In this document: positions 898 to 20,414 of the stretch, piece after piece
Position numbering within the stretch: the first letter of the stretch is position 1
Layout: every line of letters starts with the position of its first letter
Assembly (NCBI GenBank): GCA_031423805.1
Contig: JANPGE010000211.1
Location: forward strand, 8,654-72,653
Length of the DNA: 64,000 nucleotides
Origin: Segetibacter sp.
Lineage (GTDB): Bacteria > Bacteroidota > Bacteroidia > Chitinophagales > Chitinophagaceae
Direction: 5' to 3'
Made by a program: the position numbers and the translations under genes
Notes under the pieces: model-generated
The model's input: only the letters and a program-made list of their open reading frames with translations
Told to the model about the DNA's origin: nothing
The model's database searches: none

Positions 898-898
898 T

Positions 899-2749: not shown

Positions 2750-4221
2750 GTTTCATAAACAGGTTTTTTAATGCTTCAAATTCAGTAGAAGATCTAACAG
2801 CATTTACTCAAAATAATTCAATAGAAATTTATGACTTTTTCATAAGTCAGAAAAATAGTAGTATTTCAAATTATAGGACAGAGATAGAAAATTTCATCTT
2901 ACCCAAATATGGTATTTATAGTCATTTAGATTTTGAAGACAATAAAAACCAAACATTTTTATTCTGCCTATTAGATGTATCACAAAGATTCGGGCTTGCT
3001 TTGGAATTTCAACAAGTATATAATCTTGCAAGGCAAAATAATGTTCCTTTAAATAGTCGTCTAAATGCTTCAGCACAATTCCTAGTTGGCGTCAATTCTA
3101 TTAATGATTATGAAAATAGGATAAATGAAATTTTATCAAACTTATCTGATAGCTTTTTAAAAGAGGAAGATAACGAGCAAAAAACAATTGCAACACTAAT
3201 TCATTTCTACACAGAAGTTTTTTACAATTTTGGCTATCAAAACATAAGCAGAGTAAACGAATTTAGAAACAATTTACTTGAGCAATTAAAAAAAGAAGAG
3301 TATGGTTTTCTTTTAACGCAAAGTGTTGAAGAAGTTTTATCTTATTCTTTAAATAATGTTGAAGAGCTTTACCAAGCAGTTCATACTAAAATTGATGAAA
3401 TTTTAGAAAGAGCAAGTCAATATCTCGCATTTAATATTGAACCTCATTTAATAGAATTAGATGGACATTATGCTGAATCATTAGCTGGTATTTCAGCAAA
3501 CTTTAAAGAAATAAGAAGTCTTTGTGCTAATTTATATTCTGTAGTTGCAAGTAATGAAATTTTCTGGTCTTTGCAGAGAGGAGTTAAAGTGCTAACTGAA
3601 CAAAATCAACTTTTAGCATACTTCCATAGTTATGGAAAAATGCACCAAGCTAAAATGTTGAGTGCAATTAAACCAATCGAACAAAATGAATTAAAAGGAG
3701 AACTTGAAATCTATGACTGGGGTTGTGGTCAAGGTTTAGCTTCAATTTGTTTTTTGGAATATCTCAATGTGCAAGAAATTGCATATTCTATCAATAAATT
3801 TACACTAATTGAACCTTCTGAAATAGCAATTAAAAGAGCATCTCTTCATCTTAGAAAGTTTACAGCCGACACTCAAATAATTACAATAAATAAAGACTTA
3901 GACTCTTTAGAAAACAATGATTTTGAGAGTAAAAATTTCGTCACTAAAGTTCATTTGTTTTCGAATATTCTTGACATAGATTTGTTTTCTATGAATGATT
4001 TAATCCAATTAATTAAAAGTAATTTTTCTGGCAAAAATATTTTTATATGTGCAAGTCCATTTGTTTCTAGCTTTAAAACTGAAAGAATAGATGGCTTTGT
4101 TCAGTCTTTTTCTGATAAAACAAATTTTGAAATAATTTCTAATATTTCGCAAAAAAATGGTGAATGGCCTGGTACTAATTGGACAAGGGTTATAAGAGTT
4201 TTCAAAGTGAATATTTTATAA
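2746..4221 (+). CDS. Class I SAM-dependent methyltransferase-fold protein with ~320-aa N-terminal extension
   Basis: 491-aa ORF overlapping the upstream stop by ATGA (2746-2749). It carries SAM motif I EIYDWGCGQGLA (nt 3706-3741) and an acidic post-I strand FTLIEPSE. No (D/N/S)PP(Y/F/W) or PCQ DNA-methyltransferase motif is seen, and the N-terminal helical region has no motif I can name. Confidence 0.6.
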   Translation: MSFINRFFNASNSVEDLTAFTQNNSIEIYDFFISQKNSSISNYRTEIENFILPKYGIYSHLDFEDNKNQTFLFCLLDVSQRFGLALEFQQVYNLARQNNVPLNSRLNASAQFLVGVNSINDYENRINEILSNLSDSFLKEEDNEQKTIATLIHFYTEVFYNFGYQNISRVNEFRNNLLEQLKKEEYGFLLTQSVEEVLSYSLNNVEELYQAVHTKIDEILERASQYLAFNIEPHLIELDGHYAESLAGISANFKEIRSLCANLYSVVASNEIFWSLQRGVKVLTEQNQLLAYFHSYGKMHQAKMLSAIKPIEQNELKGELEIYDWGCGQGLASICFLEYLNVQEIAYSINKFTLIEPSEIAIKRASLHLRKFTADTQIITINKDLDSLENNDFESKNFVTKVHLFSNILDIDLFSMNDLIQLIKSNFSGKNIFICASPFVSSFKTERIDGFVQSFSDKTNFEIISNISQKNGEWPGTNWTRVIRVFKVNIL

Positions 4222-6977: not shown

Positions 6978-7148
6978 ACGGCGAAGTTACGACCTTCAAA
7001 TTTTCTTAAATGCCCTTTATCGTTCTGTTTAAAAAAGTATGGGCAAATGGTTGTTTTTTGTTGAAAAGCCTACACATTATAAAAAGTACTGCACATGCCC
7101 GCAACATAGGCATACTTTTTTTTAGTTTTAGTTACAAATTTCATTTAT

Positions 7149-7292
7149 ATGAAAATGGTTACACAGTGGTTAGAAGATGCGCTCAATGATGTGCAGCTTG
7201 AAAAAGTTGGTATTAAACTGGTAATGCTTGTAATGATAGTATTAGGGTTAGGCGCATTAAGTTTGTACATATTGCTTAATAGTCCTGCCTGA
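7149..7292 (+). CDS. Possible 47-aa single-TM small protein, below the ORF-track cutoff
   Basis: Hand translation gives MKMVTQWLEDALNDVQLEKVGIKLVMLVMIVLGLGALSLYILLNSPA*. It has an ATG start, one hydrophobic helix, and sits in an otherwise empty 317-nt gap. There is no homology evidence. Confidence 0.3.
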   Translation: MKMVTQWLEDALNDVQLEKVGIKLVMLVMIVLGLGALSLYILLNSPA

Positions 7293-7294
7293 TA

Positions 7295-8125
7295 TTATTT
7301 AGAATACTCCTTCAGATTTGCTCTTTCTTTTTTTGAAAGGCTGCTGATTCCTCGCTTATGAATTTTTTCGAGTAACCTGTCCAACTCTTTCTGTTTGTTT
7401 ATCTTATTAAGATTATATCTGTCTTCTACAGTATAGTTGTGGTGGTTTTTGTAAAAAAGATTATCAATCAACAAAGCCTGCGGTTTGTAAACAATAAATG
7501 CTATAAAAGCAATGGCTGGCAATGCAATAACAGCAATCGTAAAAGTATTGGTAATTAATATGGATGGAGAAAGTATGATTGCAAATAGTACACCCGCCAA
7601 TCCGCCGCCCAGGTGAGCATCGTGGCCTACATTTTCGCTACGTGAACGGATGCCGTAAATGGAGATAACAACATAAATTAGCCCAAACAACCAACCGGGT
7701 ATGGCCGGCAAAAAAAACAAACTGATATCCATACCCGGAAATAATGCAATGGATGCAAAAATCACCGCATTGATAGCCCCCGATGCACCTACACTACTGT
7801 AATCACCTGCAAAGCGATGAATAAAAAGACTCAACAGATTGCCTCCTAACAATCCTGAAATGTAAATGAGAATAAATTTTATTGGCCCCAGATAAGATTC
7901 TACGCCACCACTAAAAAAGATTAAAGCAATCATATTAAAAACCAAATGGGTCCAGTTAACATGCAAAAATCCTGATGTCATAAGGCGTTTGTAATCTTTA
8001 TGCACCAATACAGCATCAACAATAAATGAATAGCGGTCGTAAAAAAACTGATCCTTAAAACCACGGTACGACGTAACAACATTCATGATGATGAGAATGG
8101 TACTTATTGAGATAAATGGCATCAT
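7295..8125 (-). CDS. Rhomboid family intramembrane serine protease
   Basis: Motifs FLHVNWTHLVFNM (HxxxxHxxxN), GASGAINAV (GxSG catalytic Ser) and HDAHLGGGLAG (catalytic His). Multi-TM, with a cytoplasmic C-terminal tail. Confidence 0.85.
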   Translation of the reverse strand: MMPFISISTILIIMNVVTSYRGFKDQFFYDRYSFIVDAVLVHKDYKRLMTSGFLHVNWTHLVFNMIALIFFSGGVESYLGPIKFILIYISGLLGGNLLSLFIHRFAGDYSSVGASGAINAVIFASIALFPGMDISLFFLPAIPGWLFGLIYVVISIYGIRSRSENVGHDAHLGGGLAGVLFAIILSPSILITNTFTIAVIALPAIAFIAFIVYKPQALLIDNLFYKNHHNYTVEDRYNLNKINKQKELDRLLEKIHKRGISSLSKKERANLKEYSK

Positions 8126-8240
8126 TTTATGGTATTTAGTACTTAGTATTTAGACTGCTTCGAAATTAATATATTCAACATTGTGGTAACTATATGGAAC
8201 AAATAAAAAATTCTCAATTTTGTCAGATTGATCAGGACAT

Positions 8241-8269
8241 CAAAACAAAAACCCGCCGGTTGGGCGGGA
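8241..8269 (-). terminator. Rho-independent terminator downstream of the esterase gene
   Basis: On the minus strand, the stem CCCGCC / GGCGGG (8252-8257 and 8263-8268, 5-nt loop) is followed by TTTTTGTTTTG. It begins 8 nt after the stop of the 8277..9008 CDS. Confidence 0.6.
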
Positions 8270-8276
8270 ATTAGTT

Positions 8277-9008
8277 TTAAAATTTATTTTCCAAAATGTA
8301 TGGAAGCATTTTGCGCCACGTTGGCCAATCATGTTTTATATCCTGACCCCAAACATCCAAATCGCACCAAATACCTTTGTCAAAAAGTAGTTGTGCAAAC
8401 CTTCTGCTTGCATTAGGATCTTCATAATCGCCGCTGCCTGTATAGATATGTATGTGATGGCTTGCCTTTATTTTATCAAGATAATATTGGTCAGAAAGAT
8501 TGCTGATATAATGCTCCGGGCTGTTGAAGTAAACCTGATCATCCCAATAGCCTTTGGTGTATTCTGCCAGGTTATAAACACCACTCATAGAGATTGCGCC
8601 GTTGATCATATCGGGTCTTTTCAGAAATAAATTCATGGCATGCAGCGCACCAAAAGATGCACCACAGGTATAGATAAATGTTTCCTGACTTGTGGCGTTT
8701 CTGATAAAAGGAATTACCTCATTAAAAACATACTCGTTAAACTGATTGTGCCTTATAGCCTTGTGCGACGGTTCCATTTCATTATTCAACCAACTTTCTT
8801 TGTTTATACTATCTATACTGAACACCCTGCATTTACCGCTATCAATCAATGGTGCAAGTGTATCAATCAGTTGAAACCTTTCATATTCTAAATAGTCAGC
8901 TGCAGCAGTTGGTATTAAGAGTACGGCAAATCCGTAATGACCATAAGATGCAATAGGCATTTCTTTGTTAAGCGAAGGGCTGTACCATGAGGCTAATTCT
9001 CTTCTCAT
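8277..9008 (-). CDS. Esterase family protein (alpha/beta hydrolase)
   Basis: 243 aa with the nucleophile elbow GASFG in YTCGASFGALHAMNLF. Overall similarity to putative-esterase (esterase D-like) proteins is judged from memory. Confidence 0.65.
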   Translation of the reverse strand: MRRELASWYSPSLNKEMPIASYGHYGFAVLLIPTAAADYLEYERFQLIDTLAPLIDSGKCRVFSIDSINKESWLNNEMEPSHKAIRHNQFNEYVFNEVIPFIRNATSQETFIYTCGASFGALHAMNLFLKRPDMINGAISMSGVYNLAEYTKGYWDDQVYFNSPEHYISNLSDQYYLDKIKASHHIHIYTGSGDYEDPNASRRFAQLLFDKGIWCDLDVWGQDIKHDWPTWRKMLPYILENKF

Positions 9009-9091
9009 AATTGTTGTTTAGTTTTTTTTAATAGTTTGAATTGCAAGACAAAATAGTACATTTTATTTGTGCAGCAGTTGCAAATTTTTTA

Positions 9092-9835
9092 TCAGGCTAT
9101 TGTAAGTTTACTCAATTCTTTCCAAAGGTCCCTATAGCACTGTGCTGCATAGCTGCTTTTGGCATAGGAAAGTACGGGTGCAAGGTGTTGCCCCATTTTT
9201 TCTACATCGCTTAGGTAGGGTATATAGTTTTTGAGAAAAATTCTGTTTTTATACTCGTTGGTCATTACTTCATTGTGCAGGTTCTTTCTAAGGTCAACCA
9301 TGCTAAAGAAGCTTTTGATTTTTGAAACATCCAGGTTGTTTTGCTGAAAATACTCCTGAACGGTATCATAGCTGCGCATACTTAGCGTGGTAGGTATATT
9401 GGGAATAACAACCCAATCTGCTGCATGAAAAATATTGTCGTGCAGCACAGAAAGACCCGGCGGGCAATCTATAATAACGATATCATAGTCATTTTTAATT
9501 TCGGTTATTGCTGCTTTTATGCGCTTTTTCCCTTGCTTAATGTCAGCCAATACCACATCTGCATTTCTTGCCGACAGGTCAGATGTTATAATGTCAAGGT
9601 TATCATAACCCGATGGCTGAATGACGGAAGCCAAATCAAGTTCATTGGATAGCAGTTTTTTTGCGCCGTTTTTTATGGCAGCATCCATCTGAAAATAAAA
9701 ACCTGCTGCACCTTGCGGGTCTAAATCCCACAAAAGGGTACGCCACCCTTCTTCGGCAGCTAAATAAGCAAAGTTGACGGTAGCGGCAGTTTTGCCTACT
9801 CCACCTTTCTGATTGTAAAATGCATAGACTGTCAT
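9092..9835 (-). CDS. ParA/Soj-family ATPase with no adjacent ParB
   Basis: Deviant Walker A at the N-terminus (NQKGGVGKTAATVNFA) and IIDCPPG (Walker B region); 247 aa. Confidence 0.85.
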   Translation of the reverse strand: MTVYAFYNQKGGVGKTAATVNFAYLAAEEGWRTLLWDLDPQGAAGFYFQMDAAIKNGAKKLLSNELDLASVIQPSGYDNLDIITSDLSARNADVVLADIKQGKKRIKAAITEIKNDYDIVIIDCPPGLSVLHDNIFHAADWVVIPNIPTTLSMRSYDTVQEYFQQNNLDVSKIKSFFSMVDLRKNLHNEVMTNEYKNRIFLKNYIPYLSDVEKMGQHLAPVLSYAKSSYAAQCYRDLWKELSKLTIA

Positions 9836-10279
9836 AAATTAAAAATACATTTTTTTAAAACACCGTGTTTAGAAAATAGAGAATAAAATGCCCGAAGCGA
9901 ATGGGGTAGTAAGTATAAAAAAAGAAAATGGTGAAATAAGAGTTGGTATAGAAGGGAAAATAAGCAAACAATCGTTAGAGGCCGTTTCCAACTCTCATCT
10001 CACCATATATCAAAAAACTAATAACAACCGGCAAAGCCAATTATTATTCAAAACCCAAATTTCATATTGCAAAAAACTTAATCGTAGAGTAAATGAGTGT
10101 TGTAAAATACAGCTCAAAAACAAATGGCTAACAATCGTTAGTAAAAAAGGCAGCGCAAAGATGTGGTTTTCTATTGTAAATATTAAATTTCTGTGAAGTT
10201 TTTTTTGGGGGGGTACTTTATTATTGTGCTGGATGTAGTGTCAGGTTTTTCTTCATTAGTCGTAAAAATTACACTTTTA

Positions 10280-10293
10280 GAATTCGCGAATTC
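10280..10293. promoter_or_regulatory. Perfect 14-bp palindrome GAATTCGCGAATTC upstream of the giant helicase gene
   Basis: Read directly in the AT-rich 430-nt leader region. Function unknown. Confidence 0.2.
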
Positions 10294-10628
10294 GGAATTG
10301 ATGAGTTCCATTTAGGGGACGTTTGCAGACAAATGCTATACAACGAAAGACTAAACCGTTGATGTAAACTAAAATAATTTAATCTTTTAAATAGAAAAAT
10401 ATTAATTTTCTTGAATTCTAAAAACTTTTATTCTGAAAATGTTTCTGCGAAAACTCCTAATAGCCTGTTGCGCCATAGTTAATCTCTTGCATCAGACTTA
10501 TGAAAACACCCGGCTGATGGTGGCAAATAAACAACATCCTAATCGGTACCCTAAGCTTTAACACATTCAGTTTTAGCCAATACAAAAAACTAAAAGCACT
10601 AAATTTACCCAACGCACCACTAAACAAT

Positions 10629-13600
10629 ATGGAATTAACAGAGAAACTTTTAACTGAACTTCAAAGACGACTTAAAATTGGCAATCGCAGAGGCGTTCAT
10701 TTAAATGCTATTCCAGCAAATTCAAGGTACAAGTTCGACTTAAACAGACTTTCATATATTGAAAAAAATATACCCGACAATTTTGTAAAGGCTTTGCTTT
10801 CTGAATTACCACTTAAATTCAGAATAAGTTGGAAGGATAATGTGCCTGACCTTAACTCTCTTTTTGAAGAAGACCAAGCACAGTTAGTGAAAATTACAAA
10901 AGCGTTTGAAAATCTTATCAATCAAACTGAAGCAATAGAATCTGAAAAAGGGATAAATACATTTGGGTTTGGTTTTCCAATTTTAGCTAGACGAGATAGA
11001 GCCGACAATAAATTGACAGTTGCTCCAATTCTCATTTGGTCATTAAGAATAAAGAGAACCAAAGAATTCAACACTTGGGAGATTTTAAGAAACGAGGAAG
11101 ACCCGATTTATATTAATGAGGTCTTAATAAATCATTTACAGAGTGACTCAAATATTGAGATTGAACAGATACCAAGTGATATGCTTGACGATGGTTTAAT
11201 CAACAAGGCTGAACTTATAGAAATTTGTTCAAAGCTAATTAGAACTGTAAATACTACATCTCCCGACGATTTAGAAGAAACATTCAAAAGGAAAATTGAT
11301 AAAATTACATCTATTGGTGATAAAGCACATTATGATAAACTCCCATTAAATTCTTCAAATTCCTTCATTGACTTTGGTGGCTTATTTTCAATTTTTGAAG
11401 TCCAAAAGCAAAATATTATTAATGATTACGGCAATCTTTTGGAGCTTGAAGGACTTACTATTGACCTGGAAGACTTAGAAGGTCATACATTTCAACCGAT
11501 TTCATCAGTTGAAACAGATCCGTCCCAACAAAGCATTTTACATTCGTTAGAAACCGCTAGAAATGTTTTAATTCAAGGTCCACCAGGAACAGGTAAAAGT
11601 CAAACACTTACTGCAGTCCTTATCAATGCACTTGAAAACAATAAAAAAACAATTGTAGTCTGCGAAAAAAGAACTGCACTTGAAGTTTTGTATAATGCAC
11701 TTATTGAAAAAGGTTTAAACTATCACTGTGTCTTAGTTCGTGATATAGTAAAAGACCGCAAAACGGTTGTTGATTCCGTTAGAGACAGGGTTGATACTTC
11801 TGAATACAAACGCTACCGATATAATTATTCAAAAGAATCCTTGGATAACTTAGTTATTAGAGCCAAGGACCTAATAATAAACATCAATAAGAAACATAAA
11901 AAACTTGACAAAAAACTTATTGGCAATAAATCTTGGTCAGATGTTGTCGGTAATTTGTTAGCCGAAATAAAAGGAAATACTGACGATAGCAATTTAAACA
12001 TTGAAAGGAATGTATTTGTTTACTCCACACCAGAATTAAATACATTACTTGATCATGCTCAAAAAGGACAACCACTATACACCGATTTTCTCCCAATAGA
12101 ATCAACATCGTTTATTAATCCATTAAAATTAATTGGTGACAATCCGTTCTTAATTGAACAAAATATAAATGATGACTTTGATAATTATGCAAAGAAAATT
12201 AAAGAGATCAAACTTCTTTTGGAAGCAAATAGAAGGGAATTTATTATTTTAAGAAATACAGAATTGAAAGATCAATGTGCTTCAATTAGCAATTGTATTG
12301 AAAACATAAAAGCGAAAGAAAATGAACTGAGTATTTTGGTTTCAATTACTAAAGAAGATTATTACAGTTTTAGAAAAGCTGAAATAGAAAGTCAAACAAG
12401 GGATATTGAAGTTCAGATCGAACTAATTTTAACGAAAAAAGGCGAGTTTGCTGAATTGTTATCTTCCACAAAAAACGATTATTGCAAATTTAGAGATGAA
12501 GAACTTAACAAACAAATTAAAGCTTTTTCCGAAATAATTGATTCAATTGATACCATTATAAGCGACAATGATAATAACCCCAACTTGACGAACGAGGTAA
12601 AAGTTAACAGCCTGTGGTTTAAAATACTTGCTTTATTTTCTAAACGAAGAAAACGAATAATTGCTGACCAATCGAAGTTGCAAACCGAATTCAAAGAATT
12701 AAAAAAAACAGTTGATATTTCGAAAGATTTCTCAAGTTCAGATTTTGAAGGCGATTTAAACTCTCAACTTAGCAACTTGGGTATATTTAAGAAAACCTTA
12801 ATTAACGTCCAACAGCATTCTAACAGCAAAACTCAAAAAGAATTTGAATCATTTAATCTGTCAACCACATTAGAAATTAAGGATTTTAGCATTGTTTTTC
12901 AAGCTATGCAATCGGTAATCCAAAACTCTGACAATTCGGAAAGTTTGCACCATCCACTTAAAACAATTCAATCTAAATTCAATGATTTTCTAAGGGAAAC
13001 TGAAGCAAATTTTGAATTGCTATCAAAATATTTACTCAAATCAAAAGACATTAAAATAAGCCATCTCTTTGCCGGTTCAATAAATGAGAATTTAATGTTC
13101 CTTAGAGAGATAAAGGAAAAATTGCACTTAATTAAAATTGATTTTAACAATAAAATTGAAACCGAATTCACTTCTTTCAATCTTGACACAATATTGAACC
13201 CAAATAACAATAATAATTTTATATACTTCCAAGAAATAACAAGCAATTCCGAAAATTCAGTAGAATTCAATTCCAAAATCAAGTCAATTCAAACCACCTT
13301 TGAAAATTTTTTATCAGAACTAAATTCTACATACCAATCCCTTTCAAGGGAGTTAGCCGAAAGTAAACACATTAGGCTACATTACACCTTTGACAAAAAT
13401 TTTCAAGAAAACAAAAGAATTTTATTAGAAATAAAAAAACAGATCGAATTAATTAGTGTTGATTTTAAGGATAGGGTTCAAAGCGAGTTTCATCAAAATA
13501 TAAGTTTGATGAAAATAAATCAAAATGAAATAATAATAACAAATTTACTTCAAATAACAGAAGCTCTAATCTCCCACGACTATACTGAAAATAATAGAGA

Positions 13601-15989
13601 TCAGTTCCTAAATTCAGAATATTCAACTAGCTGTATTTTACTAAGGAAAAAGATATTTGAGTTATTAAACGATCTCCACTCAGATGATTGGACGCTTGAC
13701 AAAGTAATATTCACAGAATTCTACAAATTGATAACTGATGTTGAAACTCATATCCGTAATAAGACTGATTATTTCAAGGCCGAGAAAGATTTATTTACAA
13801 TTGAATTTAAGTGGTTTCAGTTTTACAACGGCTTGTCCGAAACAAACAAAGCAATTGTAAATGAATTAAAACCTAAAAGCAATTGGAGAAAGTCTTTCTT
13901 GGTCTATTATCTTCATTCTTTGCTCGTAAGTTCTGCTAATTTAGATTTGCCAACGAATGATGAAGAACACAAAGAACTTGACAAAACTTTAAACGGATTA
14001 GAAAAAGAGCAATTGAAATATATAAAAGAGTTTTGGTTTTCAAAACAGATAGACTCCACAAGAGAATTTGAACAAAAGAACTCCAACCTTTCGGTAGCCA
14101 ATCTATATAATAAAAAAAGCGGAAGTAGATTTAAAAGACTTTCACTACGACAAATTGTTCAATTTGACGCAAATCTCTTTACGAACTTCTTCCCTATAAT
14201 TCTTACTTCTCCCGATGTAGCAAGTAATCTGTTCAAAGGAATGAATAGCTATTTTGACATTGTAATGTTTGACGAAGCCAGCCAATTGCGTTTGGAAGAT
14301 AATCTACCAGCGATTTTAAAAGGGAAGCAGATTATCATTGCAGGTGATGAACACCAAATGCCGCCATCAAATTATTTCAGCAAAGTTTTTGACGGAGCGG
14401 TTGAAGATGAAGAAGATTTAGAGGAAGAAAAAGAAATTGTTGTTGACAAAGACAACATTTTGTTGTCTTGCGAATCTTTGCTTGACTTCGGTTCTGAATT
14501 AAACTTTCAAAGAAAGCACTTAGACTTCCACTATCGTTCAAGACATCCTTTTTTAATTGATTTTTCCAATTATGCCTTTTACAATCAAAGGTTAAAGCCT
14601 TTGCCAAATAACTTTGACTATGTGCCGATAAAGTATGTTCAAGTCAATGGCACCTTTTCCGAACATACAAATGAAGCAGAAGCCGAAATGGTTTTATCAA
14701 TCATTGATAAAAATATAAACAGATTGCCAAACGGAGAATATCCGACTGTGGGAATAGCGACATTTAATATTACACAGCGGAATTTGATTAAAAGCAAAAT
14801 TATAGAGCGGCAAAAGTTCTCAAAATTTGAAGAGTTTAACACCAAAATTCAAGAGTTAGAAGAAAAAGGAATGTTCATCAAAAACTTGGAAAATATCCAG
14901 GGTGATGAAAGAGATGTTATTATTCTTTCAACAACATACGGTATAGGAAAAGACAGAAAATTTGCTCAAAGATTTGGTCCAATAAATCATTCAAAAGGTT
15001 ACAAGTTATTGAACGTAATTATTACCAGAGCAAAGTTTAAAGTTTATTGCTGTTCCTCTATCCCAGAGCAAGTATTTATGAATTATAAAGAATACTTGAT
15101 AACAGAAGGTTCAAATAACAAAAGAGCAGTTTTCTATGCATATTTGGCATACTGCAAAGCGGTTAGCGAATCTAATAATGACTTACGTTTATCTGTCCTT
15201 ACAACACTTGCAGAAAACACAACAAAAAGTGCAGGTTTCGATTCATTCAAAGGAGGAGATTTAGAATCCCCTTTTGAAGAAGAAGTCTATCAAAGTTTAG
15301 CAGACCATTTAGGAACGGAAAAGTTAATTCCTCAATTACAGTTTGCAGGTTTTAGAATTGATATTGTTTATGACCCAAAAATAGTTGGAGTTTCTAAAAT
15401 TGCTATTGAATGTGATGGAGCAAAATATCATTCCAGCAGAGAAGCATATTTATATGACAGCCACAGGCAAAAAATATTAGAAAATCATGGCTTTGTATTT
15501 CATAGAATTTGGAGTACAAATTGGTGGCGTAATTCGAGCAGAGAAACTACAAAACTTGTTGACTTTATCAAACAAATTGAATCATCTTCAAATCCAAACT
15601 ATAAAGACCATTCCCATACTGCATTTGCATTTAGTGACGAGATAGTAATTATTGAAGACTATATTTCGCAGACTTCTTTTATTGAGATTGAAAAAGATAA
15701 CCAAACTATTGAGGCAATTGAAAAGATTGCTCCAATTCAGACAAAGATTTTTAAAGAAGAAGTAAAACTAAATAGTAAAGTACAAGTTAAATATATGAAT
15801 AACGGCAAAGACATGAATGTTCAACTTGTCTCGACAGAGAACAACAAAAACGATAATTCAAGCGGTGTTCAAAAAGTATATTACAAATCCCCTTTAGCAG
15901 GTTCTTTACTTGGACATACGGTTGGCGACATCGTAAAAATTGGCAACCTTGACAACTTTGTAGAAATAATTAAAATCACAAACGATTAG
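10629..15989 (+). CDS. 1786-aa DUF4011-type SF1 (Upf1/DNA2-like) helicase fused to a DUF559/Vsr-like endonuclease and a GreA/B-C-like tail (Hhe-like)
   Basis: Helicase motifs: GPPGTGKSQT (Walker A, nt 11577-), MFDEASQL (II, nt ~14265-), AGDEHQMPP (III), IQGDERDVIILS (V), LNVIITRAKFKV (VI). About 890 aa of helical, repeat-rich insert lie between Walker A and motif II. Restriction-endonuclease-like DUF559 core: FRIDIVYD...IAIECDGAKYH...HRQKILENHGFVFHRIW (nt 15264-15532). The C-terminus VQVKYMNNG...YYKSPLAGSLLGHTVGDIVKIG (nt 15771-15986) is like the GreA/GreB C-terminal domain. Confidence 0.85.
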   Translation: MELTEKLLTELQRRLKIGNRRGVHLNAIPANSRYKFDLNRLSYIEKNIPDNFVKALLSELPLKFRISWKDNVPDLNSLFEEDQAQLVKITKAFENLINQTEAIESEKGINTFGFGFPILARRDRADNKLTVAPILIWSLRIKRTKEFNTWEILRNEEDPIYINEVLINHLQSDSNIEIEQIPSDMLDDGLINKAELIEICSKLIRTVNTTSPDDLEETFKRKIDKITSIGDKAHYDKLPLNSSNSFIDFGGLFSIFEVQKQNIINDYGNLLELEGLTIDLEDLEGHTFQPISSVETDPSQQSILHSLETARNVLIQGPPGTGKSQTLTAVLINALENNKKTIVVCEKRTALEVLYNALIEKGLNYHCVLVRDIVKDRKTVVDSVRDRVDTSEYKRYRYNYSKESLDNLVIRAKDLIININKKHKKLDKKLIGNKSWSDVVGNLLAEIKGNTDDSNLNIERNVFVYSTPELNTLLDHAQKGQPLYTDFLPIESTSFINPLKLIGDNPFLIEQNINDDFDNYAKKIKEIKLLLEANRREFIILRNTELKDQCASISNCIENIKAKENELSILVSITKEDYYSFRKAEIESQTRDIEVQIELILTKKGEFAELLSSTKNDYCKFRDEELNKQIKAFSEIIDSIDTIISDNDNNPNLTNEVKVNSLWFKILALFSKRRKRIIADQSKLQTEFKELKKTVDISKDFSSSDFEGDLNSQLSNLGIFKKTLINVQQHSNSKTQKEFESFNLSTTLEIKDFSIVFQAMQSVIQNSDNSESLHHPLKTIQSKFNDFLRETEANFELLSKYLLKSKDIKISHLFAGSINENLMFLREIKEKLHLIKIDFNNKIETEFTSFNLDTILNPNNNNNFIYFQEITSNSENSVEFNSKIKSIQTTFENFLSELNSTYQSLSRELAESKHIRLHYTFDKNFQENKRILLEIKKQIELISVDFKDRVQSEFHQNISLMKINQNEIIITNLLQITEALISHDYTENNRDQFLNSEYSTSCILLRKKIFELLNDLHSDDWTLDKVIFTEFYKLITDVETHIRNKTDYFKAEKDLFTIEFKWFQFYNGLSETNKAIVNELKPKSNWRKSFLVYYLHSLLVSSANLDLPTNDEEHKELDKTLNGLEKEQLKYIKEFWFSKQIDSTREFEQKNSNLSVANLYNKKSGSRFKRLSLRQIVQFDANLFTNFFPIILTSPDVASNLFKGMNSYFDIVMFDEASQLRLEDNLPAILKGKQIIIAGDEHQMPPSNYFSKVFDGAVEDEEDLEEEKEIVVDKDNILLSCESLLDFGSELNFQRKHLDFHYRSRHPFLIDFSNYAFYNQRLKPLPNNFDYVPIKYVQVNGTFSEHTNEAEAEMVLSIIDKNINRLPNGEYPTVGIATFNITQRNLIKSKIIERQKFSKFEEFNTKIQELEEKGMFIKNLENIQGDERDVIILSTTYGIGKDRKFAQRFGPINHSKGYKLLNVIITRAKFKVYCCSSIPEQVFMNYKEYLITEGSNNKRAVFYAYLAYCKAVSESNNDLRLSVLTTLAENTTKSAGFDSFKGGDLESPFEEEVYQSLADHLGTEKLIPQLQFAGFRIDIVYDPKIVGVSKIAIECDGAKYHSSREAYLYDSHRQKILENHGFVFHRIWSTNWWRNSSRETTKLVDFIKQIESSSNPNYKDHSHTAFAFSDEIVIIEDYISQTSFIEIEKDNQTIEAIEKIAPIQTKIFKEEVKLNSKVQVKYMNNGKDMNVQLVSTENNKNDNSSGVQKVYYKSPLAGSLLGHTVGDIVKIGNLDNFVEIIKITND
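12840..13484 (+). repeat. Intragenic tandem duplication, two units of 108 and 107 aa, inside the helicase insert
   Basis: Unit 1 starts EFESFNLS (nt 12840), unit 2 starts EFTSFNLD (nt 13164), and the next segment starts SEFHQNISL (13482). Hand alignment of the last 68 residues gives 24 identities (KxIQ..F..FL.E...L.S.L..SK.I...F...EN..L.EIK..I.LI..DF). Confidence 0.7.
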
Positions 15990-16006
15990 CCTATAATGCA
16001 TACACC

Positions 16007-16031
16007 TTTGCAGGTAAAGAATACCTGCAAA
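16007..16031. repeat. 25-nt perfect hairpin TTTGCAGGTA-AAGAA-TACCTGCAAA (copy 1)
   Basis: 10-bp perfect stem with a 5-nt loop, lying between the convergent 3' ends of the giant helicase gene (+) and the 16062..17114 gene (-). Identical to 20347-20371. Confidence 0.85.
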
Positions 16032-16061
16032 AGTGTCGAAAAACAGTAAATTAATTTCCCC

Positions 16062-17114
16062 CTATCCCTTGTAATAAGGCATGTGCGTATTGCTAAAGGC
16101 ATTTTCTGTATTGGTCCAGTTTTCTAGCATTTCATTTCTGGCTTTATTATTCTGCCCTATAGATTGGTTGTAAGTGTTTACTGCTGTATTAATTTCTTTT
16201 ACTGCTTTGTTGTAGTTGTCTACATCTTCTCTTGTGCGGCTCGATTCTGATTTGGCTTCAAATGCCTTTGACATCTTTTCAAAATTTTCCTGCTTTAAAA
16301 AATAATCTATGGTTTTTGGAATGTCATTTTCGCCTCTTTTCTTATAAAAAGACAGCGCCTGCCGGCATGCAGTTACCAATGTCATATCACCTTCAAAAGA
16401 TTTAGTTGTATCCAATATTTTAAGTCCCTCATCAGCATACTTAATTAGTGCGTTGCGTGATTGCTCCAGGTCTTTTACTTTCTTCTCGTTAATTGCTTTT
16501 GTTATTTCGCCATCTTGCCAATTGCATTTGAAAAATATTAAGTAAATCTGATTTTTATAATGGTTCAACTTGCCTGCAACCCCCATTTTTTCTGACAGTT
16601 CATCTTTAGGGCCGTTTACAATTGTGACCTTGTATTTTGCTGCAAAAGCAAGGCTTGCGGTGTGCATTTTCTTAGATGCCTCTTCCAGCTTTTCCCCGGT
16701 ATTTTCCTGCAGCAAAATGAAAGCCTGCATTTGGTCAAAAGATTGCTCGGCTATTTCTTCGGTGTTTACTATTTTACTATAATCTTCATTAAAAACATTA
16801 TAGCACAGTTGTATATAATCCATACTGCTTTGGCGCAATGAATTGTCGCCTTTATATATAGGAAGCTCTATGGTTTTGTACCTGCTGTTTGTAATGCTTT
16901 CCAAAACCTGCTGTCTTAATTTTTCAACTTTTCTTGCCCTGCGGCCATGTGCGGCAGCACTCATGTAAGTCATGTACTTTTTGTTCATTTCATCATGGGC
17001 ATTTACTATTGCGTTCATGTAAGTGCCCGGGTCTTCAAGGGTTTGCGCAGCAACATCTGCACTATACCTGCTACAAAAGAGTATGACTAAAATGGTGGTT
17101 AGAATTTTTTTCAT
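16062..17114 (-). CDS. Hypothetical secreted/lipoprotein-like helical protein
   Basis: 350 aa with an N-terminal signal-like MKKILTTILVILFCSRYSADVAAQ. Host-like composition, and sits 22 nt downstream of the S41 peptidase gene on the same strand. Confidence 0.55.
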   Translation of the reverse strand: MKKILTTILVILFCSRYSADVAAQTLEDPGTYMNAIVNAHDEMNKKYMTYMSAAAHGRRARKVEKLRQQVLESITNSRYKTIELPIYKGDNSLRQSSMDYIQLCYNVFNEDYSKIVNTEEIAEQSFDQMQAFILLQENTGEKLEEASKKMHTASLAFAAKYKVTIVNGPKDELSEKMGVAGKLNHYKNQIYLIFFKCNWQDGEITKAINEKKVKDLEQSRNALIKYADEGLKILDTTKSFEGDMTLVTACRQALSFYKKRGENDIPKTIDYFLKQENFEKMSKAFEAKSESSRTREDVDNYNKAVKEINTAVNTYNQSIGQNNKARNEMLENWTNTENAFSNTHMPYYKG

Positions 17115-17136
17115 GATTTATTTTTTAGGTAAAAAA

Positions 17137-19215
17137 TTAATTTTTCATTTGTATTGCCAATTCGTACGCTATTGTAATATAAGGATCCTTTTCAAGTTCT
17201 TTTTTTGACTGCAAATCCATTTCTTTCATGCTGCTGTTGGTGCTTAGCTTTTGTTTGTCAAAAGAATTGTTCTCTGCTTTATATGCTGCCGTAGCTTCCT
17301 TAGCCGAAGTTAATGATGGCAGCTCATCTGCTTCTTTTTTGCTGCTTGTTTGTAAAGTCAAAGAAATATCCTGTTTTGCATTATTTGATTTTGCTGTTGC
17401 TATATATTCCTTTAGTAGTTTAAAATAGGGTACCCCACTGACTTTATTTTGGGCAACCGTTTTTAACGCTGCTATTTCCAACCCTGCCAGCGGTTTATAA
17501 TATTTGTTTGCATCAATTTCCTTTAGCTTAATAGCAAGTTTGTTGTCAGACTCCCTTTCGCCGGAAACTTCTAATGCATCGGGCAGTAGAATATCAGGTA
17601 TTACTCCGCTAACCTGTGCTGTTTTACCGGTAATCCTGAACAATTGAAAGTCTGTAATTTTCAGGTAACTATCCGCTTTTATTTCTCTTATGTTATCATT
17701 TTCCAGGTTAATCGTTGTGTCCATTGGCAATACTACCTGACCTGTAGCTTTACCAAATGTTGGTGACCCAACAATAACGGCACGGTTATAATCCTGTAAA
17801 GTCCCTGCAACAATTTCAGAAGCAGAAGCACTATATCCGTTTACCAAAATTATTAACGGACCATCATAGATTGTTCCGCGGTTGCCATCTTTTAGTGTGA
17901 TAACTTTTGGGTCTTTGGTTTTATACTGACCTACAGGCCCCGCATCTATAAAAAGCCCTATTAGCCCTATTGCTTCGCTTAGCGAACCGCCTCCATTATA
18001 GCGCAGGTTTATGATCAATCCTTCAACGTTTTCTTTTTTCAACTTCATGATTTCTTTGGCAACATCGTTGGCGCAGCCATTGACCCCACTATTGTTTTCC
18101 CAATCTTCGTAAAATGCAGGCAGTGAAATATATCCAATGGTTTTGCTGCCTTTTAAGAGGTAGCTTTTTACATTCCCTTCGTCATCATCGTCTTCCAGCA
18201 TTTCCTTCCATAAAGTAATTTCTTTTATGGAGCCATCCGTTTTTTTAATTTTCAATTTTGCATTGTCGTGGTTGCTTGCACCAAGTGCTGCCCCAATTTC
18301 CCGCATACTTGCACCGCTTACGTCTATAGGCTCTTTTCCTTCCCACTGAATAGATAAAATCTTATCGCCCTTATTTAGCTGTCCGCTTTTAAAAGCCGGG
18401 CTACCTGGTTTTAATTCATTTATAACCACATTATCATCCTTGTCCACATCAAGGCTAAATCCAAATGCCATAGCTTTTTGCCCCAGTTCGCTTTCAAAAT
18501 TTTCTTTTTCTGTTGGGGGAAAATATTCAGTATGTGGATCAAAGCATTTTGCAATCGCATTGCAGTATTCTTCACTTACAGATTGTTCTATACCGCCGGG
18601 GCTTTGCAGCATAGCGTTTATGCGTCTTTTAAAATATTTCTGCATTTTTTGCCTGGTTACTGGTTCCACACTATCAGTCAATTTTTTTTGCTGCTTTGGT
18701 GAAAGAGGTAATGAATAATCAAGGTCTTCAATTTCATCTAGCACAGAAAACTTTAGTACTTTGTATAATTTTTTGCGCATGGCAGCTTCATTCACAGGAT
18801 AGGAAGTGTCTTCTGCAACTGTGAATTTTTCAGGAAGCGAAAAAACAAAAGATGCTTTTGCTATGGAAGTTACCATGGTATCAGCCTGTAGCAATCGCTT
18901 TTTAAAAATTGATATCAGGTTTTGTAAAAACCGGGTTTGCTTTCCCTTTATTTCATCGTCAATAGAGAATTGATAAGCAGATAGTGCCTTTATATCTTCC
19001 GTGGTGAAAAATAATTTATCATCATCAATTTCGTTGAGCAATGCGTTATATACATCTGCCGAGAAAGCGTCATCAATAGTCCGTGGTTGCACGTGAAATT
19101 TCGCCGCCAATCGTGTAATTACAAAAGCATCTTTTGCTGCTTTGCTTACTGGCTGTGCCATTCCACTAAAATGGAGCATCACATTAAACAGGGTTAGCCA
19201 TAAAATTTTATTCAT
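17137..19215 (-). CDS. S41 family C-terminal processing (tail-specific) peptidase with PDZ domain
   Basis: Signal peptide; PDZ segment GSPAFKSGQLNKGDKILSI; S41 motifs NLRYNGGGS and LVNGYSASASEIVAGTLQDYNRAVIVGSPTFGK. Confidence 0.9.
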   Translation of the reverse strand: MNKILWLTLFNVMLHFSGMAQPVSKAAKDAFVITRLAAKFHVQPRTIDDAFSADVYNALLNEIDDDKLFFTTEDIKALSAYQFSIDDEIKGKQTRFLQNLISIFKKRLLQADTMVTSIAKASFVFSLPEKFTVAEDTSYPVNEAAMRKKLYKVLKFSVLDEIEDLDYSLPLSPKQQKKLTDSVEPVTRQKMQKYFKRRINAMLQSPGGIEQSVSEEYCNAIAKCFDPHTEYFPPTEKENFESELGQKAMAFGFSLDVDKDDNVVINELKPGSPAFKSGQLNKGDKILSIQWEGKEPIDVSGASMREIGAALGASNHDNAKLKIKKTDGSIKEITLWKEMLEDDDDEGNVKSYLLKGSKTIGYISLPAFYEDWENNSGVNGCANDVAKEIMKLKKENVEGLIINLRYNGGGSLSEAIGLIGLFIDAGPVGQYKTKDPKVITLKDGNRGTIYDGPLIILVNGYSASASEIVAGTLQDYNRAVIVGSPTFGKATGQVVLPMDTTINLENDNIREIKADSYLKITDFQLFRITGKTAQVSGVIPDILLPDALEVSGERESDNKLAIKLKEIDANKYYKPLAGLEIAALKTVAQNKVSGVPYFKLLKEYIATAKSNNAKQDISLTLQTSSKKEADELPSLTSAKEATAAYKAENNSFDKQKLSTNSSMKEMDLQSKKELEKDPYITIAYELAIQMKN

Positions 19216-19474
19216 GCAAAAGAATAGTTGTGCAGTGAAAATATTAAAATATTTTGAATCGGTAACTGTTCAGCCAAATTGTTCTAAAAATGATTTTACC
19301 ATGTTGTTTCATGGTGAATCAAATATGCCGGTTCAAATTCGCATAACCGATATGAATGGAAAATTAGTGGGACTATTAAAAGGTAACGCAGCGCATAATT
19401 TCACCTTTGGTTCAGAATGGGCACCCGGAATTTACCTGGTAGAGGCCGTCAAAGTAACGAAATACGAACCTTGA
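19214..19474 (+). pseudogene. Orphan T9SS C-terminal sorting domain (Por_Secre_tail-like) remnant
   Basis: The ORF tail VTVQPNCSKNDFTMLFHGESNMPVQIRITDMNGKLVGLLKGNAAHNFTFGSEWAPGIYLVEAV has the pattern of a type A T9SS CTD. No cargo domain is present, and any upstream extension of the frame would run into the divergent S41 gene start. Confidence 0.6.
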
Positions 19475-19573
19475 AAGCTTTGAAAATAAAGTAGCACTTT
19501 TGTTTTAAAGTTTTTTTTATTGCACGGTGGCTCTTAAAATGCTGTTGATGAGGGACTCCAACAGGTTACAATG

Positions 19574-19625
19574 TTTGCAGATTTACAGGTAAATAATACG
19601 TGTAAAGTGTTGAATTAATTTATTT
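19574..19625. repeat. Degenerate third copy of the hairpin element plus its right flank
   Basis: CAGGTAAATAATACGTGTAAAG (19586-19607) matches CAGGTAAAGAATACCTGCAAAG at 19 of 22 positions. The flank AAAGTGTTGAATTAATTT matches copy 1's flank AAAGTGTCGA[~10 nt]AATTAATTT. A 6-nt insertion disrupts the left arm. Confidence 0.6.
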
Positions 19626-19696
19626 CAAGTTTAAGCCTCTTTCTCTACATTTTAATTTATCACCTTCGATATTTCAGGAAATTTCATAATTGTTTA

Positions 19697-19704
19697 TATT
19701 TTTG
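19697..19704 (+). promoter_or_regulatory. Candidate Bacteroidota -7 box TATTTTTG (TAnnTTTG)
   Basis: Exact match to TAnnTTTG ending 3 nt before the ATG at 19708, which implies a leaderless or near-leaderless mRNA. Confidence 0.35.
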
Positions 19705-19707
19705 AGT

Positions 19708-20025
19708 ATGCCAAAAATTTTTGAATACCTGGCTTATATTATACGTTTTTATTCCAATGACCATTTGCCTGTTCATGTCCATGTTCAGCTTCAGGAAAGG
19801 GAAAGTAAAGCTGAATTTCATTTTGATGAAAACAATGGTGTAGTTTTATTATTCAAAAAAGTTAAAGGCAAAGAGCCGCTTACTGAAACCGAAACAAAAG
19901 AAGTGGCGGTTTTTTTAAAAGAATATCAACAAAAAATTATAGAGAAATGGAACAGCATATTCGTGTTTCACCAAAAGGTAGATTGCGAAACAATACATAC
20001 AAAAATCAAAAAGAAGAAGTTATAA
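19708..20025 (+). CDS. DUF4160 domain protein
   Basis: MPKIFEYLAYIIRFYSNDHLPVHVHV matches the DUF4160 N-terminal signature (MP.I....G..F.FY.N.H.P.H.H). I prefer the ATG at 19708 over the listed start at 19690. Confidence 0.7.
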   Translation: MPKIFEYLAYIIRFYSNDHLPVHVHVQLQERESKAEFHFDENNGVVLLFKKVKGKEPLTETETKEVAVFLKEYQQKIIEKWNSIFVFHQKVDCETIHTKIKKKKL

Positions 20026-20297
20026 CAATCAGCAATGCTTATTACTTAGGCAACTTGGTTTTGCTGTTGGCATTTAGCAATGGGGTACAAAAAAGGCTTG
20101 ATTTTTCAACCATTTTTCAGCGACACCTCAAAGGATATTATGAACAATTTTCCACGCCTACAAAATTTAAACGCTTTGTATTAGCAAATGGCAATATCAG
20201 TTGGGGGAAAAACGAAGACGTTATTTTTCCTGTGAGTTTCTTATACAATCACCCTAAAGCTAAGAAGGAAAAAGAGGAAGTGCTATATGTGATATAG
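19947..20297 (+). CDS. DUF2442 domain protein, start uncertain
   Basis: LVLLLAFSNGVQKRLDFSTIF...NGNISWGKNEDVIFPVSFLY fits the DUF2442 pattern. The only ATG (19947) gives a 79-nt overlap with the upstream gene, and no canonical start lies near the domain start at ~20015. Confidence 0.6.
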   Translation: MEQHIRVSPKGRLRNNTYKNQKEEVITISNAYYLGNLVLLLAFSNGVQKRLDFSTIFQRHLKGYYEQFSTPTKFKRFVLANGNISWGKNEDVIFPVSFLYNHPKAKKEKEEVLYVI

Positions 20298-20346
20298 GTC
20301 ATTAGGGGGTGTCGCCACTTCCCCTACAGCCTAAATTATGTTCAAA

Positions 20347-20371
20347 TTTGCAGGTAAAGAATACCTGCAAA
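20347..20371. repeat. 25-nt perfect hairpin TTTGCAGGTA-AAGAA-TACCTGCAAA (copy 2)
   Basis: Identical to 16007-16031. It lies between the convergent 3' ends of the DUF2442 gene (+) and the E1 dehydrogenase gene (-). The left flank begins AGCCTA as in copy 1. Confidence 0.85.
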
Positions 20372-20414
20372 GGCATTTGCAAAAACGTTGACTATCTGTT
20401 TTGCAAAAAACATT

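Follow-up and report, generated by a model that had tools for sequence, protein, structure and literature searches.

The DNA analysed here, a 64,000-nucleotide stretch of a Segetibacter sp. contig (JANPGE010000211.1; hereafter the window), carries a single large gene that joins a helicase motor to a nuclease. The question raised by this locus is whether that gene serves in defence against invading nucleic acids or in the ordinary upkeep of the host chromosome. An annotation made from the sequence alone (the original prediction) had proposed a stand-alone anti-phage gene of the Hhe class. We put the probability at about 0.7 that the segment from bp 10214 to bp 15981 is a single-gene accessory cassette in a polymorphic Segetibacter defence hotspot, and that it encodes a stand-alone immune protein of the helicase-nuclease kind, belonging to the Hhe/ProA/PDC-S37 superfamily and, within it, to a distinct clade centred on the Bacteroidota. 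The coordinates of the cassette, its gene and the surrounding features are given in Table 1.

The status of the gene was determined by comparison with closely related genomes. The flanks of the cassette are 93% identical in a sister metagenome-assembled genome (MAG), L008, and blastn analysis showed homology between the two loci only at window positions 7000-10213 and 15982-20303. The slot between these flanks (L008:13230-18693) holds a different cassette of 5464 bp, encoding SIR2 (15211-16515; PADLOC 387 bits), HerA (16502-18292; PADLOC 523 bits) and three small open reading frames (ORFs) of 281, 151 and 128 amino acids (aa) that gave no Pfam or PADLOC match. At a further locus, L009, the arrangement is identical to that of the window, and the same 1786-aa gene is present with 97.1% nucleotide identity over 12 kb. 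The breakpoints of the exchange are sharp, the left one falling after a T8G7 run (~10198-10213) and the right one within a few bases of the stop codon, before a hairpin. Both slot cassettes, that of the window and that of L008, have approximately 32% GC content against a background of approximately 37%, and the 1786-aa ORF itself (31.4% GC, 27% GC at third codon positions, GC3) stands apart from the neighbouring UvrD, ParA-like, S41 peptidase and E1 dehydrogenase genes (GC 38-42%, GC3 33-40%). The original prediction had placed the gene on a low-GC segment, citing 19 G+C in the 60 positions of line 12001-12060, and had described the flanking genes as host-like; both statements hold, as the genes on either side are ordinary chromosomal genes. 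The S41 peptidase next to the slot shares 97% identity with its counterparts in two Segetibacter MAGs. No tRNA, integrase, transposase, or flanking direct or inverted repeat was found in the cassette or at its ends, which fits cassette exchange by recombination between conserved flanks.

The same polymorphism was seen in freshwater-sediment metagenome contigs, where the L008-type left junction (at 10213) coexists with the window junction, and where the helicase-nuclease gene has a depth of 8.8 compared with 13-23 on its flanks. The alternative junctions came from runs X1, X3 and X7, and in one recurrent type a different sequence enters at 16003. A joint from 10228 to 16007 occurs in two runs and may mark an empty site, although its match on one side extends over only 25 bases. 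No RNA runs holding the sequence were found. The gene is accessory and borne by a hotspot, not part of a syntenic core; the family-wide conservation in synteny that the original prediction had named as the mark of core DNA-repair machinery was not seen, since the slot of L008 holds SIR2-HerA and the contexts of six homologues, described below, all differ. The locus thus documents a chromosomal defence hotspot of the Chitinophagaceae in natural sediment, at which helicase-nuclease and SIR2-HerA cassettes are exchanged between conserved flanks.

Homologues are numerous. A search with the C-terminal 768 residues of the protein recovered 6309 clusters (50% identity) at E<1e-30, the scored candidates included more than 3000 close homologues, and all 33 full-length representatives carry MTES_1575 together with AAA_11/AAA_12. 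Six homologues on long contigs lie in six unrelated neighbourhoods, five with recognised defence genes and two with relaxases. The neighbours are an MmeI-like restriction-modification system and AbiE in a Chitinophagaceae MAG (L003); MobC, a relaxase, a restriction-modification system, SLATT, AbiE and an integrase in Flavobacterium yafengii (L005); a Cap4 nuclease, HEPN-RES and SIR2 with DUF87 on a 5.4-Mb contig (L006); a restriction-modification system and, directly upstream, a complete operon of the cyclic-oligonucleotide-based anti-phage signalling system (CBASS) in a Flavobacterium sp. (L012); a relaxase, RadC, an AAA_15/21 ATPase with DUF4276, Peptidase_U49 and a YobI ATPase in Sphingobacterium bovistauri (L013); and a helix-turn-helix gene with small unknown ORFs on a metagenome contig (L014). 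The family also occurs on plasmids, among them plasmid p1 of Flammeovirga kamogawensis, in which a 1217-aa relative (L011:7977-11630; 38.8% identity) with a much shorter insert and no Gre-like tail is located just downstream of the plasmid replication and ParA/ParB genes.

The occurrence of homologues on mobilisable elements and plasmids speaks for a different target, with the gene acting as a defence or competition module against plasmids and other mobile elements, or as a stabiliser of the element that carries it, and not against phages. Helicase-nucleases could act on any incoming DNA, and the data do not separate phage from plasmid targets. We nevertheless consider this unlikely, because the nearest named relatives, Hhe and ProA, are annotated and used as anti-phage proteins, and because most of the neighbouring genes belong to classical anti-phage systems (CBASS, AbiE, SIR2-HerA and restriction-modification). 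A phage origin of the gene itself was rejected, as no relative was found in IMG/VR with the two patterns tried and one weak fragment match was obtained among 50,697 phage records. In two unrelated genomes a Ser/Thr protein kinase gene lies directly 3' of the homologue (L003:15126-16244 and L012:12931-14649), the kinase of L012 also having TPR and FHA domains; this downstream kinase could be a recurrent partner or a coincidence.

The architecture of the protein is that of a superfamily 1 (SF1) helicase followed by a nuclease. All six motifs quoted in the original prediction were found in the one ORF at the spacing given there: Walker A (GPPGTGKSQT, beginning at residue 317, with K323 as its lysine), motif II (DEASQL, 1215), motif III (GDEHQMPP, 1239), motif V (GDERDVIILS, 1425), motif VI (ITRAKFKV, 1465) and the nuclease core (IAIECDGAKYH, 1591). 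Walker A and motif II, which had been put some 890 aa apart, are separated by 898 aa. Of the domains suggested for a check, three were recovered by Pfam above their cut-offs, namely DUF4011 (23.2 bits, cut-off 22.2), AAA_11 (47.9 bits, cut-off 27) and AAA_12 (40.7 bits over residues 1294-1473, cut-off 27). The DUF4011 match covers residues 88-170 and profile positions 76-158 only, and DUF4011 was matched in 19 of the 33 diverse relatives, with a best E of 2e-8. In an AlphaFold2 model of residues 1-1190 (predicted local distance difference test, pLDDT, 80.5), residues 1-290 form an alpha/beta fold with a pLDDT of approximately 90. This N-terminal domain is as conserved as the helicase motifs, and a search of its profile against the PDB found no relative.

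Walker A (G317-S324) and motor motifs II, III, V and VI are invariant among the 33 relatives. A model of residues 1019-1786 (AlphaFold, mean pLDDT 79) was used for Foldseek searches, in which the best match of the motor was Upf1 (8rd3_A, E 5.8e-10), along with SETX, IGHMBP2, Aquarius, Dna2 and Sen1 at E 1e-8 to 6e-10; phmmer against the PDB likewise matched IGHMBP2, Sen1 and Upf1. Because these are its structural matches, the motor is called a Upf1-like SF1B helicase, and its RecA1 domain is split by a helical insert of approximately 800 aa. A 5'->3' polarity would be expected from the family. The best fold matches share only 15-22% identity with the window protein and, unlike it, lack DUF4011, an insert of comparable size and a Gre-like tail. 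Dna2 pairs its helicase with a PD-(D/E)xK nuclease, as the window protein does, but in a different domain order, its nuclease being N-terminal.

The nuclease is supported by profile search, with 88.7 bits to MTES_1575 (cut-off 38.2). It had been described as DUF559/Vsr-like, of which the Vsr-like part stands; DUF559 proper reached 17.4 bits, under its cut-off of 20.6, and the assignment therefore rests on MTES_1575, taken as a Vsr-like sister family of DUF559. D1596 and D1610 are the same in all 33 relatives, and D1578, E1594 and H1601 are at least 90% conserved in them; D1578, E1594 and D1596, with H1601 and D1610, are putative catalytic residues. The domain can be aligned with the nuclease of Hhe.

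A similar combination of parts is found in CnuH of the type III-B CoCoNuT systems, which by its published description joins a Vsr-like nuclease directly to a Upf1-like SF1 motor whose Walker A is followed by a large insert of helical or coiled-coil type (PMC10542128). CnuH belongs to a McrBC-type (CnuB/CnuC) operon, whereas the window cassette is one gene, and no McrB or McrC match was found by Pfam or PADLOC among its neighbours (the ParA-like gene, the 102-aa and 350-aa unknowns and the S41 peptidase). Since the authors of CnuH argue for RNA targeting (PMC10542128), the window protein could by the same token be an RNA-directed immune effector, its motor tracking nascent transcripts or phage mRNA and its Vsr-like domain cutting RNA; the closest solved folds are RNA helicases (Upf1, SETX, IGHMBP2 and Sen1), and the Gre-like domain would set the protein beside RNA polymerase. 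We regard this as quite unlikely, given that Dna2, another close fold, acts on DNA and that Pfam found no McrBC partner, HEPN or RNA-binding domain in the protein or its neighbours. In addition, Vsr and DUF559/MTES_1575 nucleases are DNA endonucleases where they have been characterised.

Hhe-type helicase-nucleases are widespread single-gene defence systems, and Hhe, with its helicase and nuclease domains, has served in experiments as an anti-phage system of one gene (bioRxiv 10.1101/2024.10.10.617714, 10.1101/2024.04.14.589459). The comparator used here was a 1911-aa protein named Hhe by the Prokaryotic Genome Annotation Pipeline, from a Klebsiella IncFIB plasmid, in which Pfam matched DUF4011 (129 bits), AAA_12 and MTES_1575. 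In both Hhe (NF042953, PDLC02194) and the window protein Walker A is followed by a helical insert of approximately 900 aa, motifs II-VI, MTES_1575 and a tail, in this order, and it is preceded by DUF4011 in Hhe and by a putative, divergent DUF4011 domain in the window protein. Walker A lies near residue 445 of the Klebsiella protein and motif II near residue 1385, a distance of approximately 940 aa compared with 898 aa. As Hhe has a like gap and a like size, the gap and a length of approximately 1800-1900 aa are traits of the class; the description of the Segetibacter protein as unusually long holds within its own clade, where lengths cluster at approximately 1460, 1609 and 1750 aa, but not against Hhe. 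BLASTP aligned the two proteins over residues 1150-1635 (35% identity, 494 aa) and over residues 295-421 around Walker A (33% identity), with no pairwise similarity in the N-domain, insert or tail, and hhalign of the N-domain profile against the Hhe N-terminus gave a weak E of 0.14. The tail of Hhe is approximately 130 aa long and lacks the GreA domain present in the window protein. Hhe is found on proteobacterial plasmids, whereas the clade of the window protein is in the Bacteroidota.

Profile scores place the protein near the named families, and outside Hhe and ProA. The PADLOC check suggested in the original prediction gave PDC-S37 as the best match (451 bits) ahead of Hhe (273 bits), the former covering the helicase core and nuclease only: the 1550-position model (PDLC05009, a PADLOC v2 candidate) matched in three parts of 97, 278 and 105 bits and did not match residues 1-290, residues 541-1018 or the Gre-like tail. 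The NCBIfam model for ProA (NF058533, 'anti-phage protein ProA') scored 434.1 bits against a cut-off of 1500, over residues 284-1686 (helicase and nuclease) and model positions 641-1731 of 1903, leaving approximately 640 N-terminal and 170 C-terminal model positions unmatched; that for Hhe scored 346.1 bits against a cut-off of 2000. The 33 diverse relatives score like the query, all of them matching ProA, with PDC-S37 scores of 385-484 bits and a best Hhe match (E 3.7e-108) far under the cut-off. Nothing was found in the literature on ProA or PDC-S37. Judged by sequence, the window protein has the Hhe-class architecture but is not an Hhe equivalog. The call of a stand-alone gene of that class thus stands for the domain order and the single-gene cassette, and does not extend to membership of the Hhe family itself (346 vs 2000 bits). 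The protein comes from a large unnamed clade centred on the Bacteroidota, with an undescribed Gre-type tail, whose members lie outside the current equivalog models and appear in databases as 'AAA domain-containing protein' or, wrongly, as 'GreA/GreB elongation factor'.

Two features of this clade offer mechanistic handles, namely a stalk whose whole helical modules vary in number while the rest of the protein is nearly frozen, and a Gre-type domain suggesting polymerase docking. In the model of residues 1-1190 the chain is helical almost throughout from the end of the first RecA1 part to approximately residue 1150, and includes helices as long as 54 (H506-559) and 80 residues (H567-646); helices of this length suggest a coiled coil or stalk. 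Foldseek with this model returned generic coiled-coil proteins only (SMC, MukB, JetC and dynein, TM<0.1). When the query was aligned with eight close relatives from Flavobacterium, Sphingobacterium, Chitinophagaceae and Bacteroidales, residues 541-1020 showed 13-41% identity with 8-71% gaps, while residues 1-540 and 1021-1786 were 66-96% identical to the query per 60-residue block, mostly above 80%. Internal repeats in the insert were missed by blastp self-comparison and were found by local alignment with shuffling. Module A, of approximately 46 aa, occurs in two copies (z=8.5; none of 300 shuffles equalled the score), and module B, of approximately 108 aa, in three (z=13.2 for B1/B2 and 7.4 for B2/B3). 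The second copy of module A is missing from the 1609- and 1460-aa relatives, which also have fewer copies of module B; the window protein is long within its clade because helical modules have been duplicated in tandem. The last module B copy holds a clade-unique, low-confidence insert of approximately 26 aa (aa ~975-1000; pLDDT <50 at 962-995).

In the N-domain, motor and nuclease, pairwise codon analysis against three homologues gave dN/dS (the ratio of nonsynonymous to synonymous substitution rates) of 0.01-0.08 at a dS of 0.5-2.7; the values were 0.03-0.04 for the N-domain and 0.008-0.028 for the motor. In the insert dN is approximately 10 times that of the flanks, and dN/dS is 0.13-0.17. 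The gene is therefore old, functional and strongly constrained everywhere except in the stalk. These pairwise ratios, with dS saturated, support fast evolution and indels in the insert and do not demonstrate positive selection. Recent horizontal transfer was rejected as the cause of the high amino acid identity between homologues, as synonymous sites are near saturation at this dS.

The C-terminal GreA/Gfh1-like domain (residues 1710-1784) had not been noticed in the original prediction. It was recovered by Pfam as GreA_GreB (cut-off 26.9), by phmmer as a match to Thermus Gfh1 (PDB 2f23, E 0.018) with the motif SP[LM]..LLGH.VGD aligned, and by Foldseek as a match to RNA polymerase-bound Gfh1 (3aoi_X, E 5.5e-4) and to GreA (9a7t_B, E 6.9e-4). 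A disordered linker of approximately 30 aa (aa ~1677-1708, pLDDT ~30) ties it to the nuclease. The tail of approximately 75 aa shares with GreA, GreB and Gfh1 their C-terminal globular domain, in sequence (including SP..LLG..VGD) and in predicted fold; it differs from them in lacking the N-terminal coiled coil, which in those proteins enters the secondary channel with a catalytic acidic tip. NCBIfam GreA models match at model positions 61-151 only and score 28-36 bits against cut-offs of 139-145, so the protein is not a full-length member of GreA/GreB, transcript cleavage factors of about 160 aa. In NCBI and nr some 1600-aa members of the clade bear the name 'GreA/GreB family elongation factor', which is misleading because it is taken from the 75-aa C-terminal domain alone. 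GreA_GreB was matched by Pfam in 15 of the 33 diverse relatives, and 11 of the 33 stop no more than 32 aa past the nuclease. These tail-less forms are spread through a neighbour-joining tree of the core, which suggests a modular, losable tail, although the tree is rough and some of the tail-less sequences may be truncated gene calls.

A mechanism that would use all of these parts can be outlined. The Upf1-like SF1B motor would translocate 5'->3', driven by ATP, on single-stranded nucleic acid of the invader, and the C-terminal Vsr-like PD-(D/E)xK domain would cleave invader DNA. The DUF4011 N-domain and the helical stalk inserted in RecA1 may be the parts for sensing, autoinhibition or oligomerisation, with stalk length shifting by tandem duplication of helical modules. 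On its flexible linker, the GreA-type domain would dock the enzyme at the rim of the RNA polymerase secondary channel, and docking would couple surveillance to transcription, for example of phage DNA or at a phage-stalled or hijacked polymerase. This docking and coupling are speculative, a tentative suggestion at best. Accessory domains are known to tether SF1 helicases to RNA polymerase, as with the Tudor domain of UvrD/PcrA, the Gre-like N-domain of HelD and, for Pol II, Sen1; HelD and Sen1 are among the fold matches of the window protein, and the UvrD encoded in the window has a Tudor domain. Nothing was found in the literature on Gre-like domains in defence proteins. T7 gp2 is an inhibitor of host RNA polymerase. 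In one screen T7 class II genes 1.4-2 and 2.8 and Bas63 g40 were listed as candidate Hhe triggers. It is conceivable, if doubtful, that the GreA-type tether makes the protein a transcription-coupled immune sensor-effector, which, riding on polymerase or competing for it, would sense a phage takeover or transcription of phage DNA and then translocate and cut, its hypervariable stalk being under arms-race pressure. If true, polymerase tethering would give the Hhe class a concrete sensing principle.

Several points weigh against reading the cassette as an immune gene of this kind. Across Bacteroidota orders the N-domain and motor keep 80-95% amino acid identity, an unusually high level that one would sooner expect of a housekeeping protein than of an immune one. 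In Pseudomonas aeruginosa a DUF4011 gene belongs to the core genome (PMC10250203), and the superfamily is therefore not always accessory. The protein falls short of the curated equivalog thresholds set for Hhe and ProA, the two named anti-phage families, and PDC-S37 is a candidate defence system only, on which no paper was found. The ending of 11 of the 33 relatives within 32 aa of the nuclease indicates that the tail would be dispensable for core activity. Defence activity is suggested by homology and neighbourhood, and polymerase binding by the Gre-like domain, the choice of DNA or RNA as substrate and the trigger are predicted parts of the scheme.

In an alternative reading the protein is not an immune one but a housekeeping helicase-nuclease for transcription or DNA repair, acting like Sen1, HelD or UvrD at R-loops, stalled elongation complexes or transcription-replication conflicts. 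Its GreA-type C-terminal domain, its Upf1/Sen1/SETX-like motor, the extreme purifying selection with very high identity across orders, and the core DUF4011 gene of P. aeruginosa would all agree with such a role. This reading is made very unlikely by the replacement of the gene at this site by SIR2-HerA in a 93%-identical genome, by GC and GC3 values under those of its core neighbours, by the six unrelated contexts of six homologues (two by relaxases, five by defence systems), and by the coexistence of slot alleles in one population. We therefore favour the reading of the locus as a defence cassette.

Table 1. Features of the cassette, its gene and the surrounding window (positions in the window; residues of the 1786-aa protein in brackets)
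Feature	Position	Strand	Basis or remark
Swappable cassette, 5768 bp, leader and single gene	10214..15981	+	blastn against sister MAG L008; GC 31.5% vs 37-38% in flanks
AT-rich untranslated leader, part of cassette	10214..10628	+	Alignment of homologous loci
Helicase-nuclease ORF, 1786 aa	10629..15989	+	ATG start, no internal stops; Hhe-like class
N-terminal domain, divergent DUF4011 (aa 1-290)	10629..11498	+	Pfam, AlphaFold2 model, dN/dS
RecA1 first half, AAA_11 N-part (aa 299-426)	11523..11906	+	Pfam AAA_11, 47.9 bits
Walker A, GPPGTGKS (K323)	11577-11600	+	Motif position
Tandem helical module A, ~46 aa, two copies (aa 537-582, 583-628)	12237..12512	+	Local alignment
Hypervariable all-helical insert (aa 541-1020)	12249..13688	+	Alignment of relatives, AlphaFold2 secondary structure
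Tandem helical module B, ~108 aa, three copies (aa 697-803, 804-912, 913-~1010)	12717..13658	+	Local alignment
RecA1 second half and RecA2, motifs II, III, V, VI (aa 1171-1480)	14139..15068	+	Pfam, Foldseek, conservation
Motif II, DEASQL	14271-14288	+	Motif position
MTES_1575 / Vsr-like PD-(D/E)xK nuclease (aa 1549-1647)	15273..15569	+	Pfam, 88.7 bits
GreA/GreB/Gfh1-type C-terminal domain (aa 1710-1784)	15756..15980	+	Pfam GreA_GreB, 34.9 bits; phmmer; Foldseek
102-aa ORF of unknown function, left flank, outside cassette	9888..10196	+	93% nucleotide identity in L008, which has no helicase; no Pfam/PADLOC match
Conserved hairpin, right flank	16002..16036	.	Inverted repeat I25, 15-nt arms, 93% complementary; kept in L008
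350-aa gene of unknown function, right flank of slot	16062..17114	-	Slot-adjacent in window, L008 and L009; no Pfam/PADLOC match
UvrD/GajB-like helicase, C-terminal part, cut by window start	31-897		
ORF product with 2CompART, 2CompARG and Rho_N, as in two-component ADP-ribosyltransferase / ADP-ribose glycohydrolase systems	899-2749		
491-aa protein, unknown	2746-4221		

The gene had also been said to follow an AT-rich leader of some 430 nt. The ATG is indeed separated from the stop of the upstream ORF (10196) by 432 nt of 33% GC, of which only the last ~45 nt (~10584-10628, AAAGnACTAAATTTACCCAACGCACCA...) are conserved in homologous loci of Chitinophagaceae and Flavobacterium. This short stretch before the ATG is probably a family-specific promoter or an element of the 5' untranslated region. 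A riboswitch or small RNA was rejected for the leader, as there was no noteworthy Rfam match at E<=1 and conservation is confined to these ~45 nt. Scans for sigma-70 promoters and terminators found nothing beyond chance in the leader, Bacteroidota promoters lying outside that scan. At the other end of the slot, the conserved hairpin is probably a shared terminator of the convergent genes.

The left side of the slot is flanked in the window by a ParA/AAA_31-type ATPase gene (9092-9835, minus strand), which may be chromosomal housekeeping or an element remnant. A gene of similar size with a faint AAA_31 match (L005:20021-20794) lies beside the integrase in the homologue-carrying mobile element of Flavobacterium. 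On the side of the S41 peptidase away from the cassette is a second variable site (window 19260-20400 vs L009:142-5313), where a 1219-aa DUF7619/Por_Secre_tail surface protein and a DDE transposase are encoded in L009 and only small ORFs are present in the window. Window positions 1-4221, with 27-30% GC, form a second AT-rich accessory block, which contains the last three features of Table 1.

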